Shown: in pieces, positions 12,464 through 63,278 of the stretch
Numbering within the stretch: the stretch's first letter is position 1
How the letters are laid out: every line of letters begins with the position of its first letter
Sequence record: PQ349265.1
Length of the DNA stretch: 64,000 nucleotides
From: Escherichia phage CJY920
Reading direction: 5' to 3' (one strand)
Made by a program: the position numbers and the translations under genes
The notes under the pieces: generated by a model
What the model saw: the letters and a program-made list of their open reading frames with translations, nothing else
Databases searched by the model: none
What the model was told of the DNA's origin: nothing

Positions 12464-12525
12464 CTTGTTTACTTTAAGATTTGGATGGTATATAATAGAA
12501 ATCTCACTAATTGAACGAGGTTCAT

Positions 12526-13443
12526 ATGGATTTAGAAATGATGTTGGATGAAGATTACAAAGAAGGAATTTGCTTAATTGACTTTAGTCAAATTGCGCTT
12601 TCAACTGCTTTGGTAAACTTCTCAGATAAAGAAAAAATTAATTTATCAATGGTTCGTCATTTGATATTGAACTCAATTAAGTTTAATGTCAAAAAAGCAA
12701 AAACGCTTGGATACACTAAAATTGTACTGTGTATTGATAACGCGAAATCTGGATATTGGCGTCGTGATTTTGCTTACTATTACAAGAAAAACCGTGGAAA
12801 AGCACGAGAAGAATCTACTTGGGACTGGGAAGGTTATTTTGAATCCAGCCATAAAGTTATAGATGAATTGAAAGCTTATATGCCATACATTGTTATGGAT
12901 ATTGATAAGTATGAAGCAGATGACCACATTGCTGTTCTTGTTAAAAAGTTCTCTTTAGAAGGACATAAGATTTTAATCATTTCGTCGGATGGTGACTTTA
13001 CTCAACTTCACAAATACCCAAATGTTAAGCAATGGTCACCGATGCACAAGAAATGGGTTAAAATTAAAAGCGGTTCTGCTGAAATTGACTGTATGACTAA
13101 AATCCTTAAAGGCGACAAAAAGGATAACGTTGCTTCAGTTAAAGTACGATCTGACTTTTGGTTTACCAAAGTTGAAGGTGAACGAACTCCTTCAATGAAA
13201 ACTTCAATCGTTGAAGCTATTGCTAATGACCGTGAGCAAGCTAAGGTGCTTCTCACAGAATCTGAATATAATCGTTATAAAGAAAATTTAGTTCTAATTG
13301 ATTTTGATTATATTCCTGATAATATTGCTTCAAACATTGTGAATTACTATAATTCATATAAATTACCACCGCGTGGCAAAATTTATTCATATTTTGTAAA
13401 AGCGGGTCTTTCTAAATTAACTAATAGCATTAATGAATTTTGA
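12526..13443 (+). CDS. rnh: RNase H (5'-3' exonuclease / flap endonuclease), 305 aa
   Basis: Translation from ATG 12526 MDLEMMLDEDYKEGICLIDFSQIAL... matches T4 RNase H as recalled; ORF-track start at 12511 is a TTG extension; SD GAGG at 12517. Confidence 0.9.
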   Translation: MDLEMMLDEDYKEGICLIDFSQIALSTALVNFSDKEKINLSMVRHLILNSIKFNVKKAKTLGYTKIVLCIDNAKSGYWRRDFAYYYKKNRGKAREESTWDWEGYFESSHKVIDELKAYMPYIVMDIDKYEADDHIAVLVKKFSLEGHKILIISSDGDFTQLHKYPNVKQWSPMHKKWVKIKSGSAEIDCMTKILKGDKKDNVASVKVRSDFWFTKVEGERTPSMKTSIVEAIANDREQAKVLLTESEYNRYKENLVLIDFDYIPDNIASNIVNYYNSYKLPPRGKIYSYFVKAGLSKLTNSINEF

Positions 13444-13451
13444 GGTGAATA

Positions 13452-13721
13452 ATGGCTAAAAAAGAAATGGTTGAATTTGATGAAGCTATCCATGGCGAAG
13501 ACTTGGCTAAATTTATTAAAGAAGCATCTGATCATAAACTGAAAATTTCCGGTTATAATGAACTGATTAAAGATATTCGAATTCGTGCTAAAGATGAACT
13601 TGGTGTTGATGGTAAGATGTTTAATCGTCTGTTAGCTTTGTATCATAAAGATAACCGTGATGTGTTTGAAGCTGAAACTGAAGAGGTAGTTGAACTTTAT
13701 GACACAGTTTTCTCTAAATGA
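13452..13721 (+). CDS. dsbA: DsbA double-stranded DNA-binding late transcription factor (89 aa)
   Basis: 89 aa, position between rnh and 33. Confidence 0.8.
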   Translation: MAKKEMVEFDEAIHGEDLAKFIKEASDHKLKISGYNELIKDIRIRAKDELGVDGKMFNRLLALYHKDNRDVFEAETEEVVELYDTVFSK

Positions 13722-14037
13722 TATTCGTCCGGTCGATGAGACCGGTCTTTCAGAAAAAGAACTTTCAATTAAGAAAGAAAAGGATGAAATAGCAAAGCTT
13801 CTTGACCGTCAAGAAAATGGATTTATTATTGAAAAAATGGTAGAAGAGTTTGGAATGAGTTATCTTGAAGCTACAACAGCATTCTTAGAAGAAAATTCTA
13901 TTCCTGAAACTCAATTTGCTAAATTTATTCCTTCGGGTATAATTGAAAAAATTCAGTCAGAAGCTATTGACGAAAATCTTTTACGTCCTTCTGTTGTTCG
14001 TTGTGAAAAAACTAATACATTAGATTTTCTACTATGA
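13699..14037 (+). CDS. 33: gp33 late-transcription co-activator (112 aa)
   Basis: From ATG 13699: MTQFSLNDIRPVDETGLSEKELSIKKEK...; 112 aa; ORF-track start is a TTG extension. Confidence 0.85.
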   Translation: MTQFSLNDIRPVDETGLSEKELSIKKEKDEIAKLLDRQENGFIIEKMVEEFGMSYLEATTAFLEENSIPETQFAKFIPSGIIEKIQSEAIDENLLRPSVVRCEKTNTLDFLL

Positions 14038-14687
14038 TTAAACTCCGCATGCCTGCTGGTGGTGAAAGATATATTGATGGTAAATCAGTTTATAAATTAT
14101 ACTTAATGATAAAACAACATATGAATGGAAAGTATGATGTAATTAAGTATAATTGGTGCATGCGGGTGTCTGATGCCGCTTATCAAAAGCGAAGGGATAA
14201 GTATTTTTTCCAGAAGTTATCAGAAAAATATAAATTAAAGGAACTTGCTTTAATTTTTATAAGTAATTTGGTTGCTAACCAGGATGCTTGGATTGGTGAC
14301 ATCTCTGACGCTGATGCACTTGTGTTTTATCGTGAATATATCGGACGCTTAAAGCAAATTAAATTTAAGTTTGAAGAAGATATTCGCAACATTTATTATT
14401 TTAGTAAAAAAGTTGAAGTTTCTGCTTTTAAAGAAATCTTTGAATATAATCCAAAAGTTCAATCAAGTTATATTTTTAAACTGCTTCAGTCGAACATAAT
14501 TTCGTTTGAGACGTTTATCTTGCTTGATTCATTTTTAAATATAATTGATAAACATGATGAACAGACTGATAATTTAGTCTGGAATAATTATTCTATAAAG
14601 TTAAAGGCTTATAGAAAAATTTTAAATATTGATTCACAGAAAGCTAAAAATGTTTTCATTGAAACTGTGAAATCTTGCAAGTATTAA
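14034..14687 (+). CDS. 59: gp59 helicase-loading protein (217 aa)
   Basis: 217 aa, start overlaps gene 33 stop (ATGA); position before gene 32. Confidence 0.9.
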   Translation: MIKLRMPAGGERYIDGKSVYKLYLMIKQHMNGKYDVIKYNWCMRVSDAAYQKRRDKYFFQKLSEKYKLKELALIFISNLVANQDAWIGDISDADALVFYREYIGRLKQIKFKFEEDIRNIYYFSKKVEVSAFKEIFEYNPKVQSSYIFKLLQSNIISFETFILLDSFLNIIDKHDEQTDNLVWNNYSIKLKAYRKILNIDSQKAKNVFIETVKSCKY

Positions 14688-14720
14688 TTGCTTATTATAA
14701 ATAGATTATAATTATCTCAC

Positions 14721-14786
14721 TGACCAGCTATGAGGTCATACATCGTCATAGCACCAACTGTTAATTAAATTAAAAAGGAAATAAAA
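14721..14786 (+). promoter_or_regulatory. gene 32 translational operator: mRNA pseudoknot plus A/U-rich gp32 binding tract
   Basis: Stem 1 TGACC(14721-25)/GGTCA(14734-38) and stem 2 AGCTATGA(14726-33)/TCATAGC(14745-51) interleave as a pseudoknot, followed by TTAATTAAATTAAAAAGGAAATAAAA up to the AUG. Confidence 0.8.
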
Positions 14787-15695
14787 ATGTTTAAACGTAA
14801 ATCTACTGCTGAACTCGCTGCGCAAATGGCTAAACTGGCTGGAAATAAAGGTGGTTTTTCTTCTGAAGATAAAGGCGAGTGGAAACTGAAACTCGATAAT
14901 GCGGGTAACGGTCAAGCAGTAATTCGTTTTCTTCCGTCTAAAAATGATGAACAAGCACCATTCGCACTTCTTGTAAATCACGGTTTCAAGAAAAATGGTA
15001 AATGGTATATCGAAACATGCTCATCTACCTATGGTGATTACGATTCTTGTCCAGTATGTCAGTACATCAGTAAAAATGATTTGTATAATACTGACAATAA
15101 AGAGTACGGTCTTGTTAAACGTAAAATTTCTTACTGGGCTAACATTCTTGTAGTAAAAGACCCAGCTGCTCCAGAAAATGAAGGTAAAGTATTTAAATAT
15201 CGTTTCGGTAAGAAAATCTGGGATAAAATCAATGCAATGATTGCAGTTGATGTTGAAATGGGTGAAACTCCGGTTGATGTAACTTGTCCGTGGGAAGGTG
15301 CTAACTTTGTACTGAAAGTTAAACAAGTTTCTGGTTTTAGTAACTACGACGAATCTAAATTCCTGAATCAATCTGCGATTCCAAACATTGATGATGAATC
15401 TTTCCAGAAAGAACTGTTCGAACAAATGGTTGACCTTTCTGAAATGACTTCTAAAGATAAATTCAAATCGTTTGAAGAACTGAGCACTAAGTTCAGTCAA
15501 GTTATGGGAACTGCTGCTATGGGTGGTGCCGCAGCAACTGCTGCTAAGAAAGCCGATAAAGTTGCTGATGATTTGGATGCATTCAATGTTGATGACTTCA
15601 AAACAAAAACTGAAGATGATTTTATGAGATCAAGCTCTGGCAGTTCATCTAGTGTTGATGACACGGACCTGGATGACCTTTTGAATGACCTTTAA
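14787..15695 (+). CDS. 32: gp32 single-stranded DNA-binding protein (302 aa)
   Basis: Translation [50 protein letters not shown]... matches T4 gp32 as recalled; acidic C-terminal tail. Confidence 0.95.
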
Positions 15696-15717
15696 TAGAT
15701 TATATTACTAATTAATT

Positions 15718-15742
15718 GGGGACCCTAGAGGTCCCCTTTTTT
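15718..15742 (+). terminator. intrinsic terminator after gene 32
   Basis: GGGGACC-loop-GGTCCCC hairpin followed by TTTTTT. Confidence 0.8.
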
Positions 15743-15767
15743 ATTTCAAAAATTTTTTCACATAACA

Positions 15768-15797
15768 GTTTACATACAACAAGGACTATGGTACTAT
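15768..15797 (+). promoter_or_regulatory. early promoter (GTTTAC -35, TACTAT -10)
   Basis: GTTTAC at 15768 with a -10-like hexamer about 18 bp downstream, ahead of the small early ORF cluster. Confidence 0.5.
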
Positions 15798-15840
15798 ACA
15801 ACTATCGGCAATACTGCTGATGATTAAAGAGGAAAATAAC

Positions 15841-16068
15841 ATGGCTAAAATTGATATTGATGTTGTTGATTTTGAATATATTGAAGAAATTATTCGTAAT
15901 CGTTATCCTGAACTCCGTATTACAAGCGCACTAAATGATCCTAACTGCAATGTTTCAGTTGTTATTGAAGGTCCTTTAAATCGTCTTAAACAATTTATGG
16001 TTAATGAATATTGTGACGGTATGGATGCTGAAGATGTAGAATTTTACACTGGATTTATTGAGCAGTAA
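15841..16068 (+). CDS. hypothetical small early protein (75 aa from ATG 15841)
   Basis: ATG with AAAGAGGA SD; occupies the frd.x-like position between 32 and frd. Confidence 0.5.
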
Positions 16069-16112
16069 TTATCAAGGGGCTATCAAGCCCCTATTAAAAT
16101 GAGGAAAACGCA

Positions 16113-16490
16113 ATGTATACTGGTAGAAAGTATGAACTTGTTCCAAGACTTATTGATACATTTATTAATTATAGTCCACGTTCTAATTCATCAATAGTTA
16201 AAGCTATTCGAGATAATGGCGGATGGTTTGAAGTTAAAGAAGTTTCCGTCGCCAATGGATACAAAGCAGTAAAACACATTGAATGTGCAAATGGAAAGCA
16301 TTTTTATCTCAAAGATAGACTTTTAGAAATTTGCGAAGATGAATTTCATTGTTTTCGTGAGTATAAAGAACCGACTTCTGAAGATGAAGTCGAAGACAAG
16401 GTTTCTGGCGTAACAAAAATTCACTGCATTGTTGACGAAAACAATGTAGACGAAATCATTGAACTTTTGCGAAAAACTTTCAAAAAGTAG
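16113..16490 (+). CDS. hypothetical protein (125 aa)
   Basis: ATG with GAGGA SD; flanked by terminator-like hairpin and next promoter. Confidence 0.5.
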   Translation: MYTGRKYELVPRLIDTFINYSPRSNSSIVKAIRDNGGWFEVKEVSVANGYKAVKHIECANGKHFYLKDRLLEICEDEFHCFREYKEPTSEDEVEDKVSGVTKIHCIVDENNVDEIIELLRKTFKK

Positions 16491-16797: not shown

Positions 16798-18172
<1,375 letters not shown>

Positions 18173-18426
18173 TAATTGAGGCCTGAGTATAAGGTGACTT
18201 ATACTTGTAATCTATCTAAACGGGGAACCTCTCTAGTAGACAATCCCGTGCTAAATGTTCTTTTGAACTAAATGCCTAACGACTATCCCTTTGGGGAGTA
18301 GGGTCAAGTGACTCGAAACGATAGACAACTTGCTTTAACAAGTTGGAGATATAGTCTGATCTGCATGGTGACATGCAGCTGGATATAATTCCGGGGTAAG
18401 ATTAACGACCTTATCTGAACATAATG
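18173..18426 (+). ncRNA. group I self-splicing intron in td, ORF-less (about 254 nt)
   Basis: Starts TAATTGAGGCCTGAG..., contains core GTAGGGTCAAGTGACTCGAAA and GATATAGTCTGATCTGCATGG, ends ...CTGAACATAATG; no ORF inside. Confidence 0.8.
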
Positions 18427-18761: not shown

Positions 18762-19007
18762 ATGATTTTACGATTTAAAGATACTTCTGGTGTCGTTCTT
18801 TTTACACTTCCTAATCCAAGTGAGTTAGAAGTTCCAGGACCAAATCAGCCTATTATCATTTATGGCAAAAAATATTATACTCATAAAATGACTCGTGAGT
18901 ATTTTGATAATAAAATTTCTACGGTTAAAACTTCTTCAGATTGTTATTATGATATTACTGTTTTAACGGAAAAACAATATGACGAATGCAGAACTTTAGC
19001 AGTATAA
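18762..19007 (+). CDS. hypothetical protein (81 aa)
   Basis: ATG ORF; its 3' end overlaps the 3' end of the antisense GIY-YIG gene by 12 bp. Confidence 0.4.
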
Positions 19008-19727
19008 ATATGATTCCCAGCAATCTAGAGCGCATCTTTTAGATATAAGTTTTCTGCTTATTCCGGTTTGACGCACAGCTTCTGCTATTGTTGGATATTC
19101 TACCCCATCTATACTTACTCTTAGATGGGGTTTCTTTTTACCTCTTTGTGAGTCAGAAATTCGTTTTCTAACTTCATTGGTATGTGTCTGTCCATAATAT
19201 GGATTATTGATGCCTTTCATATTAAGTGCAGCGTTTCTTTCTTGGAACTTTTTGCTTATTTCTATAGCACGATCTAACCCATAGTGTTCTTCTATAGTTT
19301 TACCTTTGATATCTCTAGGTCTACCATGTTTTTGCTTAAGTTCTTCTGGTGATAATTTTGAATTATTATTTTTAATTGCATTTGAAATTTTATTAAGGAT
19401 TTCTTGCTTTCTTGGGTGATGAGATAAGGTATCCCCAAATGATGCGTCTGCTATATTATACCCATTTTCCTTTGAGTCATATTCATGCATCCAATAATTT
19501 TCACGTTCAATAATGATAGATTTTTCGTATGGAAGTTCTTCTATGATTTTACATACGAAAGCATCTTTCCCATGCTTATTATAAGAACGCTGCAGCTTTA
19601 TTGAATGATGATTTCCATTATCTAAATCTTTAAAGTGTCGTTTCCATCGTTCTTCAAAATTAATTGCACTTCCTATATAGTGCTTATTAGTTTTAGTGTT
19701 TATAATAGCATATATTCCAGATTTCAT
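18996..19727 (-). CDS. GIY-YIG homing endonuclease, I-TevI-like catalytic domain (243 aa), free-standing and antisense
   Basis: N-terminus [35 protein letters not shown]... closely resembles the I-TevI GIY-YIG domain as recalled; C-terminal HTH-like [21 protein letters not shown]; own TATAAATA and AGGAGA upstream. Confidence 0.8.
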
Positions 19728-22063: not shown

Positions 22064-23656
22064 ATGTGGTTAACTAAGAATAACGCTATGTTTGATAATA
22101 TATACAAAAACGGAAAGTTTCTTCCATTTGGAGAAGAAAAACTTAAATCTAGACTAACAGAAGAAGATAAAGCTCTTCTAACTGATGGAATAGATTTTAA
22201 GCTCAATGTGTTCCAAATTATGGAAGGCATTGACATTAACGATCTAAAATGTGCAGTTTGTGGAAATTTCATTTCTCTGAAAACAGCAAAGAAACGTGTA
22301 TTTCCAGCAACATGTAGTAAATCCTGCTCAGGGATATTTTTCGCGGATAAGAGAATTCAAAGCCGTGATACAAATTTTGGCGGAAAAGAAAAATATAAAA
22401 AATATTTGTCTGAACTTCAACACAAAAATTCTTTAGAAAAATATGGAACAACTCATCAAAAAATTTCAAGAAATAAAAATAGAAAAACTTTAATTGAACG
22501 ATATGGGGTAACGCATAATTCACAATTAGAAAGTGTGAAAGAAGCGAGAAAAGTTATAGAAAACGGTAAATCAGTTGATATTCTGAATTCTAAAAAATCT
22601 CGCGAAAAATCTAAGAAGACTAAATTAAATTGGACTGAAGAATATAAGGCATCGTTATATTCATCTATAGGAAAATCTATTAAAAATAACGGTCATATTA
22701 ATCATGATATACTAGATAAAATCAATTACAAAATTTCTATAGAAGAACTACAACAATTAGCAAATTGTTCTCGGATGACGGCTTATAGAGCTCTTTCATC
22801 CAAAGGACTAATTGACGTTCATTATACTCAAAGTTCTATAGAGCAATTCATTTTAGATCTAGGATTTGATTGCGTAGAAACTAGAAAAATTATTCCTCCG
22901 TATGAATTAGATATTTACATTCCTGAGAAAAAATTGGCTATAGAATACGATGGAATTTATTGGCATTCTAGCGGGTCAAAGGAAACAGATAAAATTAAAG
23001 AAACTTATCATTTGATGAAGACAGAGATGTGTGAAGCACAAGGAATTCAATTACTTCACATCTTCGAAAATGAATGGATTGATGATACAAAAAGAGAGAT
23101 CTGGAAATCCATTATAAAGCATAAATTAGGATTATCAGAAAGAATACCAGCCCGAAAATGCAAAGCACGGTTTGTTAATAAGGATGAGGCAAAAGAATTT
23201 ATTAATAAGAATCATCTTCAAGGATTTTGCTCAGGAGCTCATACGTATAAAGGACTTTATTACAATAATGAGTTAGTTCAAATTATTTCTATCGGTAAAT
23301 CTAGATATAGCTCAGGTGATGAACTTTTAAGGATGTGTTCAAAATTAGGGGTTTGTGTTGTAGGAGGAGCCTCAAAATTATTAAAAGGAATTAATTGTCT
23401 ATCTTATGGCAATCGAAGATGGTGCAGTACATTATCAAATGTTTATGACTCTGTCATGGAATTTAGTCATATCTCTGAGCCATGTTATTGGTACGTCGAT
23501 AAAGGAGAGGTATTTCACCGCTCAAGCTATATGAAACATAAGCTTAAAAACAAGCTTAAAAATTATGATGATACAATAACTGAAGTAGAAAATTGTTATG
23601 CAAATGGTCTTAGAAGAATCTGGGACTGTGGAAATTTAGTTTACAGGACAAAATAA
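22064..23656 (+). CDS. putative free-standing homing endonuclease (530 aa): zinc-finger-like N-terminus, tandem YG-TH repeats, Vsr/DUF559-like nuclease core
   Basis: Cys cluster CAVCGNF...CSKSCSG; repeats EKYGTTHQKIS / ERYGVTHNSQ; core PYELDIYIPEKKLAIEYDGIYWHS...GIQLLHIFENEW resembles DUF559/Vsr-type PD-(D/E)xK nucleases; sits at the nrdA-nrdB position where T4 has mobE. Confidence 0.55.
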   Translation: MWLTKNNAMFDNIYKNGKFLPFGEEKLKSRLTEEDKALLTDGIDFKLNVFQIMEGIDINDLKCAVCGNFISLKTAKKRVFPATCSKSCSGIFFADKRIQSRDTNFGGKEKYKKYLSELQHKNSLEKYGTTHQKISRNKNRKTLIERYGVTHNSQLESVKEARKVIENGKSVDILNSKKSREKSKKTKLNWTEEYKASLYSSIGKSIKNNGHINHDILDKINYKISIEELQQLANCSRMTAYRALSSKGLIDVHYTQSSIEQFILDLGFDCVETRKIIPPYELDIYIPEKKLAIEYDGIYWHSSGSKETDKIKETYHLMKTEMCEAQGIQLLHIFENEWIDDTKREIWKSIIKHKLGLSERIPARKCKARFVNKDEAKEFINKNHLQGFCSGAHTYKGLYYNNELVQIISIGKSRYSSGDELLRMCSKLGVCVVGGASKLLKGINCLSYGNRRWCSTLSNVYDSVMEFSHISEPCYWYVDKGEVFHRSSYMKHKLKNKLKNYDDTITEVENCYANGLRRIWDCGNLVYRTK

Positions 23657-24331
23657 TGAGTACAGTTTTTAATACTAAACAGGTCGATGTTTTAAAAGAA
23701 CCTATGTTTTTTGGTTCAGGTCTTGGTATTGCGCGTTATGATATTCAACGGCATCGAGTATTTGAAGAACTTATTGAACGTTCGCTCTCGTTTTTCTGGC
23801 GTCCGGAAGAAGTAAACTTGATGATGGATGCTGCACAGTTTAATAAGCTTCCTCAGTATCAACAAAATATTTTTACTAATAATCTGAAGTATCAATCATT
23901 ACTTGATAGTATTCAAGGTCGTGCGCCGTCTGCTGTACTTATGCCATTGCTTTCAGACCCAAGCCTTGATACATGGGTTGCTACATGGACTTTTAGTGAA
24001 ACTATTCACAGTCGTTCATATACTCATATCATGCGAAATCTTTATACTGATCCATCGAAGGTATTTGATGAGATTGTACTAGATGAAGCTATCATGAAAC
24101 GTGCTGAATCTATCGGTCGCTATTATGATGATGTTCTGACTAAAACCCGTGAATGGGAAAATGCTAAAGAATTTACAGAACTAGCTAAAGAATCTCCTGA
24201 TGCTGTTTTTCGTTTAAATCGAGCTATTAAACAAGAAGCCGAAGCTAAACGTGCTTTAATGAAATCTCTTTACCTCTGTTTGCATGTTATCAACGCATTG
24301 GAAGCTATTCGTTTTTATGTATCTTTCGCGT
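23656..24331 (+). CDS. nrdB: ribonucleotide reductase small subunit, exon 1
   Basis: ...NALEAIRFYVSFA then T of a split Cys codon; R2 signature as in E. coli NrdB. Confidence 0.85.
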
Positions 24332-24640
24332 AAAATGCGCCTTTAAGCAGTAATGCTTATCGAAAACTCCTTTAATTGCTGGAAAATCCAGAAATGGAAA
24401 ACTAGCAGCCAAGGTTTTGCTTGCACCTTTAATTAGTATCATATTATAAATATGATTATACTTTTAAGAGGATGCACAATTGCAAAGCAAGGTTCAACGA
24501 CTAGTCTTCGGACGTAGGGTCAAGCGACTCGAAATGGGGAGAATCCCTCTGGGATTGTGATATAGTCTGGTCTGCATAGTAATATGTAGCAGTTCATAAG
24601 AGAACGGGTTGAGAATTAGCGAGCTCAATCGAACATAACG
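24332..24640 (+). ncRNA. group I self-splicing intron in nrdB, ORF-less (about 309 nt; boundaries within a few nt)
   Basis: Core GTAGGGTCAAGCGACTCGAAA and GATATAGTCTGGTCTGCAT paralogous to the td intron core; ends ...GAACATAACG; no ORF inside. Confidence 0.7.
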
Positions 24641-28190: not shown

Positions 28191-29415
<1,225 letters not shown>

Positions 29416-49710: not shown

Positions 49711-51222
49711 TTATAAATTAACTGTTTTCATTACGTAATTAAATTTTTCATCTGCGTAGCGCTGAATACGATCAATGCCGTGTTTTAAAAGATAGTTCAA
49801 ATGAACGTATTTCTTTTTCGTATTAGCAGATTTTGGTCTAACGCCCGCGTCATCTATGAGGTCCCAGACCGTTGCGATTGTTTTAGAACCATGCTTACGT
49901 AATACACGACCGATTGTTTGTAATACAATGATTTTTGATTTAACGCCGTGCGCTAAAACAACATGATGCAGATTTTTAACTGAAATACCAGTAGAAAATA
50001 CACCATAACTCGCTACTATAATTATTCCTTTACCGTTTTCAGCTAAGGTTTTCATTACGTTGCGGGTTTCGGTATCAACTTCCCCTGATACGTAATAAAC
50101 TTTATCGTATTCATTTTTAATTAAATCGAAAATAGCTTTACCGTGTGATACGTGTTTAAACATGACAAAAGCGTTTTCATCTTTTTGCGCAAGCTTAATA
50201 GCTAATTTAGCGATCCATTTATTTCTTTTACTGAGCCCAGTAATAATTTTTATTTCTTCTTGGTAAGTTTTTCCCTTTAATTTAGTAGTGAACTCATCGG
50301 GATAGCGAAGAAAAATACTATTAATTTTTAGCTCAGTTACTTGTCCATCTTCCATTAATTTAGAAGTCGTTACTGGCTTAAATATTTCACCAAACATTCC
50401 AACATACTGCATGATATTAGCTTTGCCATCACGTAATGAACCAGACAAACCGAATTTGAACATGCAGTTATTTAAACCTGATATGATAGATGAAATACTT
50501 TTTCCTGTAGCAAGATGGCATTCATCATTCATCATCATTCCAAACTGTGAGAACCATTCTTTTGGTTGTTTTACTACAGTTTGCCATGTACCAACAACGA
50601 CTGGCGCATCATTTTTATATTTATCATCTTTTGATGCTCCGCCACCGATTTTCTTTATCATTGCATGACTGAATAAACGATAGTCAACGAAGTCATCAGC
50701 CATCTGAGTTGTCAGAGCAGTTGTTGGAACAATGATAAGAATTTTACCTTCATAATTTTCCAAATAATATCGCGCAAGCAAAGCTTGAATTAAAGATTTA
50801 CCAGCAGATGTTGGAAGATTAAGAATTCTACGACGATTAACTAATCCTTCGAACACTGCATCTTTTTGATACCAGTGTGGTTCAATTCTTTTATTTCCTG
50901 AATAGATTTCTAATTTAGAAAGCCATTCATCAAAATCTTTTCTTGATAATTCTTCTTTTTCATTAATTTGTGGGTCAATCCAGGCTTTATAACCAAAGTT
51001 ATCACAGAACTTTTTAATTTGCCCGACTAAGCCGAATGGAAGAAGACGATTATAATCTAAAAGACGGATTCGTCCATCCCAGTTGCCATATCTGAAGCGA
51101 GGATTAAACCTATATCCATCAGCTTCAAAGCTAAAGAAATCACGGAGTTCATGAAATGTACTTTCTTCACAATCAATTCTCACGTGACTAAAATCATAAA
51201 AATGTACTTTAATGTCAGTCAT
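49711..51222 (-). CDS. uvsW: UvsW DNA/RNA helicase (503 aa)
   Basis: SF2 helicase motifs (PTSAGKS Walker A, DECH box); 503 aa. Confidence 0.9.
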   Translation of the reverse strand: MTDIKVHFYDFSHVRIDCEESTFHELRDFFSFEADGYRFNPRFRYGNWDGRIRLLDYNRLLPFGLVGQIKKFCDNFGYKAWIDPQINEKEELSRKDFDEWLSKLEIYSGNKRIEPHWYQKDAVFEGLVNRRRILNLPTSAGKSLIQALLARYYLENYEGKILIIVPTTALTTQMADDFVDYRLFSHAMIKKIGGGASKDDKYKNDAPVVVGTWQTVVKQPKEWFSQFGMMMNDECHLATGKSISSIISGLNNCMFKFGLSGSLRDGKANIMQYVGMFGEIFKPVTTSKLMEDGQVTELKINSIFLRYPDEFTTKLKGKTYQEEIKIITGLSKRNKWIAKLAIKLAQKDENAFVMFKHVSHGKAIFDLIKNEYDKVYYVSGEVDTETRNVMKTLAENGKGIIIVASYGVFSTGISVKNLHHVVLAHGVKSKIIVLQTIGRVLRKHGSKTIATVWDLIDDAGVRPKSANTKKKYVHLNYLLKHGIDRIQRYADEKFNYVMKTVNL

Positions 51223-51272
51223 GTCTAAATACCATGTAATAAATATATCTATATTTATACTGAGGAAATATT

Positions 51273-55989: not shown

Positions 55990-56088
55990 TGTATTTTCCT
56001 TGTTGAAATATAATACTATTTATAAAGTTATTTACAAGACCAAAGTAATATGATATTATATTCATATACAAATGGAGTGGTGTTTAAA

Positions 56089-56751
56089 ATGAAATATTTA
56101 ATATATCAAATTACTAATATCATCAATGGAAAAATTTACATCGGAGCTCATGCTACTCTTGACGAAAACGATGGTTATATGGGTTCTGGCGTAAACATCA
56201 AAAAATCCATCAAAAAATATGGTATTCATAACTTTAAAAAAGAAATTCTTTATTCTTTCTCCTCATCTGAGGAGATGTATAAAATGGAAGCTTTACTAGT
56301 CAATGAGGAATTCGTTATGAGAACTGATACTTATAATGCTGCTATTGGTGGTAGAGGAAATCCAGTTATAGTTCATTTGCAAGATCCTTCATATCGTAAT
56401 ATGTTATCAATGCGAACAAAAGAAGGAATGACTGCGGAAGTTAAACGAAAAATATCAAAGGCAAAAACAGGCGTTAAGCAATCTGATGAAACTATCGCGA
56501 AGCGAGTTAAAGGGCGCAATGAATATTATAAAACACATGTTCATCCACGAAAAAATAAACCTATATCGATTTCACATCGTAAAGCTATTTCTGAAAAACT
56601 TAGCGGTATTAAAAAATTTATTCCAATATGTATAAAGGGTGTCAAATTTGATAATCCTGATTACGCAGCGGAGCATTTTAAAGTTAGTCCTAAAACTATT
56701 CGCAATTGGATAAATGCGGATGATATGCCTGATTGCTATCGTATAAAATAG
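56089..56751 (+). CDS. segD: SegD-like GIY-YIG homing endonuclease (220 aa)
   Basis: From ATG 56089: MKYLIYQITNIINGKIYIGAH...; sits between genes 24 and 23, antisense to the late genes. Confidence 0.75.
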   Translation: MKYLIYQITNIINGKIYIGAHATLDENDGYMGSGVNIKKSIKKYGIHNFKKEILYSFSSSEEMYKMEALLVNEEFVMRTDTYNAAIGGRGNPVIVHLQDPSYRNMLSMRTKEGMTAEVKRKISKAKTGVKQSDETIAKRVKGRNEYYKTHVHPRKNKPISISHRKAISEKLSGIKKFIPICIKGVKFDNPDYAAEHFKVSPKTIRNWINADDMPDCYRIK

Positions 56752-62786: not shown

Positions 62787-63278
62787 TCATTCTAGTAAAT
62801 CCCAAAGATCTACGCTATTTCTTTTTGACTTTTCTCGGTTAGATTCCCAAGTGATTATTTCTAAATTTTTTACGCTTGCTATAATTTCCGGCGGAATTAA
62901 ATTATCAAATCCATATTTGATAGATACTTTATGATCGAGTTGGTAAGCACCTTCTACACCGCACACTCCTATTTTATCAGCATTCGGCCATTTTGACCAA
63001 ATTTTTCTTATTTTAGCTGACTTAGTTATAGAATGAACTCTACTAGCATATAATGCAAACTCTTTTCTTTTACCAGTCCATCGAGGATGTTTATCGCCTC
63101 TTTGCCATGGTCTGCTTATTCCGGATTGAACTTCCGAATTTTTAATAGCAACTTGTTTAATACTACATTTTCTACATGCATGTGTGGGTGTTCTATTTAA
63201 AAGCTGAATGCTTCTACTAAATTTAATACCGCACAAATCACATTTAGCGTCAACTATTTTATTACTATTCTTTGGCAT
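62787..63278 (-). CDS. putative HNH homing endonuclease with N-terminal zinc ribbon (163 aa), between genes 18 and 19
   Basis: CDLCG...CRKC Cys pairs; HNH-like YQLDHKVSIKYG...NLEIITWESNREKS; no SD, 7-bp hairpin just upstream. Confidence 0.5.
   Translation of the reverse strand: MPKNSNKIVDAKCDLCGIKFSRSIQLLNRTPTHACRKCSIKQVAIKNSEVQSGISRPWQRGDKHPRWTGKRKEFALYASRVHSITKSAKIRKIWSKWPNADKIGVCGVEGAYQLDHKVSIKYGFDNLIPPEIIASVKNLEIITWESNREKSKRNSVDLWDLLE

Follow-up and report, generated by a model that had tools for sequence, protein, structure and literature searches.

The stretch of DNA analysed here, referred to as the window, comprises 64,000 nucleotides of a Tequatrovirus (T4-like) genome. On its plus strand the list of open reading frames gives rnh (12511-13443), dsbA (13452-13721), gene 33 (ending at 14037), gene 59 and gene 32 in that order. 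Gene 59, which encodes the helicase loader, lies at 14034-14687 with a TAA stop codon at 14685-14687 and is collinear with its T4 counterpart. The ORF of gene 32, encoding the ssDNA-binding protein, occupies 14787-15695 and is followed by a predicted intrinsic terminator-like hairpin on the same strand (15718-15736). Further downstream are homologues of frd.3-frd.1 together with one extra ORF, frd, and an intron-split td gene. The top database matches to positions 13400-16200 are complete coliphage genomes with 96-98.5% identity.

Genes 59 and 32 are separated by a spacer of 99 bp on the plus strand (14688-14786), and this is the place at which T4 carries segG. A first-pass annotation of the sequence had claimed that no endonuclease gene is present here and that the spacer holds the gene 32 operator, and both statements were borne out. 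Past the stop codon of gene 59, no ORF of approximately 210 aa precedes the gene 32 operator. Among ORFs of at least 20 aa, the single one that overlaps the spacer is an antisense ORF located mostly within gene 32. A tblastn search of the whole 64-kb window with T4 SegG (phrog_7504), using a cutoff of E<=1, returned no match, and the spacer showed no remnant of segG.

The same annotation had placed segG near this position in T4, and in the T4 record (NC_000866) the gene, annotated as 'homing endonuclease, GIY-YIG family', is found exactly between genes 59 and 32. It occupies 147909-148541 (633 bp, 210 aa) and is flanked by gene 59 (148543-149196) and gene 32 (146948-147853). T4 segG starts 1 bp past gene 59, whose stop codon overlaps the segG start in the sequence TGATATG, and 55 bp separate its end from gene 32. 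It has been described as a free-standing GIY-YIG gene that is inserted in the interval from gene 32 to gene 59 and targets gene 32 (PMC2988022). Breakpoints were read directly from a blastn alignment of the window to T4 95000-168903. The two genomes are collinear through window position 14688 (T4 148542) and become so again at 14724 (T4 147918); between these points the window has 35 bp on the plus strand (14689-14723) and T4 has a segG-bearing segment of 623 bp (147919-148541) instead. The left breakpoint is the gene 59 stop codon and the right breakpoint, CCAGCTATGAGG, lies within the gene 32 pseudoknot. The T4 segG reading frame terminates in stem 2 of this pseudoknot, and the overlap between the gene and the pseudoknot in T4 has been noted previously (PMC535899).

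An alignment of 161 nt across the whole spacer shows that T2 (AP018813) is 100% identical to the window. A 99-bp spacer is present in 10 out of 10 segG-less relatives, in which it is either identical or one SNP apart. In gene 32, the window has 24 nt differences from T2; against T4 it differs in 44 alignment columns, which consist of 41 substitutions and a 3-nt indel. The 99-bp spacer is, with high confidence, the unoccupied segG homing site in the form of the T2 allele, and no observation speaks against this reading.

T4 middle promoters, which depend on MotA and AsiA, combine a -10 element with a MotA box some 12 bp further upstream, and T4 late promoters (gp55/gp33) have the element TATAAATA at -10. 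Sites resembling both are located in the spacer. A pattern search identified a predicted gene 32 middle promoter on the plus strand at 14689-14712, with the MotA-box-like pattern TGCTT-N13-TATAAT. This is the single match in the window, where 0.15 are expected by chance, and an identical sequence is labelled 'predicted middle promoter' in the record of Yersinia phage fPS-2. The T4-type late promoter consensus is found on the plus strand at 14696-14703, 91 nt upstream of the gene 32 ATG, and has 21 matches in the window versus 9.6 expected. The MotA-type middle promoter-like site would overlap the putative late promoter. Both are consensus matches in AT-rich DNA, and their activity is predicted. 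A sigma-70 scan gave no relevant site in the spacer, as expected for T4 middle and late promoters. In T4, a MotA-box-like TGCTT and the late consensus are found in the interior of segG, 236 nt and 158 nt upstream of the gene 32 ATG, respectively. These positions fit the gene 32 middle and late promoters that were reported to be embedded in segG (PMC2988022).

The pattern search also found a middle-promoter-like site, TGCTT-N14-TATAAT, on the plus strand within the 3'-terminal part of gene 59 (14521-14545; 0.09 expected). The site is also present in T4, one SNP apart. A promoter for segG has been assigned to the 3' part of the gene preceding it, and the site is counted as a T4 segG promoter (PMC2988022), yet it is kept in this segG-less phage. 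Its presence without segG suggests that the site is older than segG and may serve gene 32.

The gene 32 translational operator contains an H-type RNA pseudoknot of the T2/T6 type on the plus strand at 14721-14752. In stem 1, positions 14721-14725 pair with 14734-14738, and in stem 2, positions 14727-14733 pair with 14746-14752. Covariation was scored in 8 distinct upstream sequences of T4-like phages with gp32 identity down to approximately 63%. Across the 12 proposed pairs, every cell that could be scored (82 of 82) holds a standard pair, and compensatory changes on both sides are seen in 5 of the 12. When the 3' partners were slid by 1-3 columns as a control, 25-50% of the cells were paired. 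Both stems of the pseudoknot are thus well supported by covariation, and stem 2 also appears in the minimum-free-energy fold. When the spacer was searched against Rfam, no gene 32 operator family was matched. A hit to the DUF2815 RNA in this search was rejected as a chance match, since its 19 bits fall below the gathering score of 41. As expected from the location of the 5' strand of stem 1 within the swapped segment, the type of pseudoknot tracks segG: the T2/T6 type (GGUCAUACAUCG) is found together with the absence of segG in 10/10 genomes and the T4 type (GGUAAAGUG) together with its presence in 10/10.

The pseudoknot is followed on the plus strand by an A/U-rich leader, UUAAAUUAAAAAGGAAAUAAAA (14753-14786), that includes the ribosome-binding site and is predicted to be unpaired. 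This unstructured stretch has UUAAA-type repeats and spans both the ribosome-binding site and the AUG; from 14753 to 14789, through the AUG, it matches T4 minus one 5-nt AAUUA repeat unit. An operator pseudoknot has been described for gene 32 of T4 and RB69, and the cooperative binding of gp32 and its autogenous repression are known for the same two phages (PMC535899). By analogy with that literature, the leader is probably the part of the operator to which gp32 binds cooperatively, and this binding would repress the translation of gp32 itself.

It has been textbook knowledge since 2003 that segG has a patchy distribution in T-even phages and that it plays a role in the exclusion of T2 gene 32 markers. 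When database records were counted directly, T4 segG DNA matched 142 phage records, all with at least 95% identity, and the 59/32 junction of the window matched about 500. By these counts segG is carried by approximately 28% of relatives and approximately 72% are without it. The state varies even within one ICTV species, to which both JK38 (with segG) and PhiZZ23 (segG-less) belong. The segG-less junction is the T2-type majority state, which is long known and not new. The absence of segG in this phage is an ordinary finding, one allele of a well-studied presence/absence polymorphism.

Outside the genus, no endonuclease-like ORF was found between genes 59 and 32 in those T4-like IMG/VR loci in which the two genes could be placed (L010-L085). 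The spacers in these other genera are mostly 130 bp or shorter, and some marine loci have a coiled-coil-like ORF of 56-74 aa. Among the IMG/VR loci, segG was found in only two, both from Tequatrovirus, and one of these copies is frameshifted. Since segG was seen only in Tequatrovirus and the loci examined from other genera have no endonuclease-like ORF at the site, the empty site looks ancestral, and the segG-less state is probably the ancestral allele. segG looks like a genus-restricted invader that shows the usual signs of a homing cycle. The frameshifted copy is that of L007 (1818-2451); like another frameshifted copy in L089 from phage a51 (1101-1735), it appears to be decaying. The annotation of L095 from Shigella phage CT01 includes a partial second copy of gene 32 at 599-961, upstream of the full gene, and there are two matching places in the record.

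The consequences of an empty site depend on where SegG cuts. In T4 x T2 crosses, the 59-32 region of T2 serves as the segG-less recipient allele (Liu et al. 2003, J Mol Biol 334:13, cited in PMC2988022). The SegG cut reportedly lies 332 bp from the insertion site. SegG has been found to account for T2L gene 32 being excluded in T4 x T2L crosses (PMC2330249), and free-standing endonucleases are known to cut hundreds of bp from their own gene (PMC2988022). Gene 32 was compared among 26 related genomes, 13 with segG and 13 without; scans with gp32 in IMG/VR and in metagenomes gave 4 and 7 close relatives, respectively, a number insufficient for a large association test, and 12 GenBank loci were therefore added. 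A simple 'segG haplotype' was rejected, as no gene 32 SNP is fixed between the two groups. The candidate determinant of SegG sensitivity is codon 77 (nt 229-231 of gene 32; 15015-15017 in the window, plus strand), which lies 328-330 bp from the insertion point. It is ACA (Thr) in the window and in 13/13 genomes with segG, and AAT or AAC in 8/13 segG-less genomes, T2 included. For this association the Fisher p value is 0.0016, uncorrected for the relatedness of the 26 genomes.

The differences are at nt 230-231, and the distance from these to the segG insertion point is 328-329 bp. Within nt 211-250, genomes with and without segG differ solely at these two nucleotides on each of two haplotype backgrounds. 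One is represented by JK38 versus T2, and the other by AREG1, L007 and L099 versus PhiZZ23, CT01, L006 and L098. At the only positions nearby that split T2 from every genome with segG, the window carries the allele of the segG-bearing type. The 40-mer of the window at nt 211-250 differs from that of three segG-bearing phages only at nt 246, where it is the same as T4. From these comparisons we infer that codon 77 may mark the position of the SegG site and that the gene 32 allele of the window would be of the kind tolerated by SegG, with ACA conferring resistance. The association could also reflect the history of co-conversion rather than the specificity of the enzyme. It offers a cheap, testable guess as to what renders a gene 32 allele sensitive to SegG.

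Relative to T4, alignment and tblastn searches with T4 endonucleases showed that segG, segE, mobE and the ORFs for I-TevI and I-TevIII are absent, and that six endonuclease loci of the window differ from T4. The first-pass annotation had listed segE as missing and the introns as ORF-less, which agrees with the alignment. At the empty segE site, 19 bp (51217-51235) are found in place of T4 112045-112679. The group I introns in td (18163-18378) and nrdB (24313-24589), both on the plus strand and identified with Rfam Intron_gpI, are without an endonuclease ORF; the missing stretches correspond to T4 143705-144479 and about 138622-138908. It had also listed a mobE equivalent as missing. The mobE gene is indeed absent, but its slot is filled by hef. 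This gene (22064-23656, plus strand, 530 aa) lies between nrdA and nrdB, has 99.6% DNA identity to hef of phage U5 and matches phrog_3339 ('homing endonuclease'). It occupies the mobE/nrdB.1 slot of T4, adjoins the ORF-less nrdB intron and is carried by only 16 phage records. Hef has been described as a unique endonuclease which, like MobE, cleaves nrdB (PMC2988022).

The inventory of endonucleases thus has to be corrected, as hef, segD, a paralogue of I-TevI and a candidate new insert are all present. segD (56050-56751, plus strand) lies between genes 23 and 24, antisense to both as in T4, and has 97.8% aa identity to the T4 protein. The paralogue of I-TevI is free-standing, replaces nrdA.1 on the minus strand (18996-19727) and has 46% aa identity to I-TevI. 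It matches TIGR01453, and its domains are of the GIY-YIG, NUMOD3 and I-TevI DNA-binding types. The gene and td, from whose intron the I-TevI ORF is gone, are arranged convergently, and the paralogue may target td in trans. About 26 records contain it, and the architecture of the window is matched by phage N2 only. A restriction of the paralogue to phages with ORF-less td introns, as would be expected under collaborative homing, was considered and rejected as a strict rule, since four phages have both the paralogue and the intronic I-TevI. The candidate new insert is an ORF of 163 aa on the minus strand between tail genes 18 and 19 (62787-63278), which T4 is without. It is a member of phrog_5104, of unknown function, and about 69 records have it. 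By eye, it has an N-terminal CxxC...CxxC and a C-terminal DH...N...N (HNH-like) motif; searches of Pfam, NCBIfam and PDB sequences gave no assignment, to HNH or to any other family. It is a candidate uncharacterised free-standing endonuclease.

Other differences from T4 were observed elsewhere in the window. Positions 17023-18256, which take in the 3'-terminal part of the ORF preceding frd together with frd and td exon 1, have only 82% identity to T4, and their flanks have 93-97%. The best database match to the module from td to the GIY-YIG gene has about 92% identity, and the GIY-YIG gene is 93% identical to a gene of Klebsiella phage KP179. Judged from these identities, 17023-18256 looks like a mosaic patch around endonuclease genes. 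An extra ORF of 106 aa lies upstream of pseT (28191-28511, plus strand) and belongs to phrog_2364, of unknown function. At window 33331/33336, T4 genes 30.4-30.8 (T4 128806-130237) are absent.

Other explanations for the empty site have to be considered. It is hardly credible that segG was lost from the record through mis-assembly or a collapsed region, since an identical 299-bp junction (100% identity) is present in the independent complete genome of ECML-134, junctions with at least 95% identity are found in more than 350 records and the flanking genes are intact. Secondary loss is a more serious proposal. It holds that an ancestor with segG recombined with a segG-less relative, which brought back the T2-type spacer while the ACA at codon 77 stayed. 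This would account for a window that has the codon of all the segG-bearing genomes rather than the AAT or AAC of most segG-less ones. The markers from segG to codon 77 have been freely reassorted among relatives, which indicates that recombination is common there, and degenerating copies of segG are present in L007 and phage a51. The spacer, however, is that of T2 without a scar and gene 32 is T2-like at nt 52-67. The ACA codon may equally be an old polymorphism or the result of a co-conversion tract that ended short of segG, and a secondary loss in this phage is considered unlikely.

The first-pass annotation had taken the absence of segG as part of a lineage-defining endonuclease complement from which the excluded loci could be read. 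The complement does differ from that of T4, at the six loci noted above, and marker exclusion by SegG, SegF, SegE and others has been established (PMC2988022, PMC2330249). However, a state that is shared by about 72% of relatives, that is the state of T2 and that varies within a species defines no lineage, and one of the loci counted as missing, the mobE slot, holds hef. The prediction of exclusion from the absence of segG alone did not survive either: exclusion hinges on the target alleles, and the candidate SegG site in gene 32 of the window resembles that of genomes with segG. A lineage-defining complement of this kind is therefore quite unlikely.

The preferred reading remains an unoccupied homing site of the T2 type. 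In T4 and about one quarter of the genus, 35 bp of a compact gene 32 control spacer are swapped for 623 bp with a promoter-less GIY-YIG segG, whose ORF reaches the pseudoknot, extending into its 5' strand, and which carries substitute gene 32 promoters inside it. Upon co-infection with a phage that has segG, SegG would cut within gene 32 of the sensitive genome, and repair from the genome with segG would lead to co-conversion of gene 32 markers and often of segG too. Whether this phage would be a good recipient is uncertain, because its codon 77 allele is that of every sampled genome with segG. Exclusion is set by the SegG target in gene 32 and not by the empty site, so T2-like exclusion cannot be assumed and an empty site is not to be taken as a sign of susceptibility. 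It is suggested tentatively, as a possibility that may well fail, that this phage represents an 'empty but immune' stage of segG homing and that nt 230-231 (CA versus AT/AC) are the main determinant of SegG sensitivity. If this is true, approximately 40% of the T4 relatives without segG would resist exclusion driven by SegG. The resistant allele would also spread without the endonuclease, as expected when the cleavage and insertion sites are about 330 bp apart.

T2 is among the known systems closest to the window. The spacer, promoter motifs, pseudoknot and leader of its 59-32 region are the same base for base, but codon 77 of gene 32 is AAT in T2 and ACA in the window. The sequence of the T2/T6 gene 32 mRNA pseudoknot, CUGACCAGCUAUGAGGUCAUACAUCGUCAUAGCAC, is present at 14720-14754 with no difference detected. 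The structure of this autoregulatory pseudoknot was reportedly solved by NMR by Du, Giedroc and Hoffman in 1996 (PDB 2TPK). At the T4 segG (ORF 32.1) locus the flanking genes are the same and so is the insertion point, right after the gene 59 stop codon, and the T4 operator is that of the window from stem 2 of the pseudoknot on. Unlike the window, T4 has the 210-aa GIY-YIG gene, stem 1 and loop 2 of the T4-type pseudoknot, the extra 5-nt AATTA unit and gene 32 promoters within segG. The IC59-32 region of RB69 is likewise without segG, and has a short spacer, a pseudoknot-like element and a leader repressed by gp32 (PMC535899). RB69 belongs to a different genus, however, and both its sequence and the RNA target of its gp32 have diverged from those of the window.
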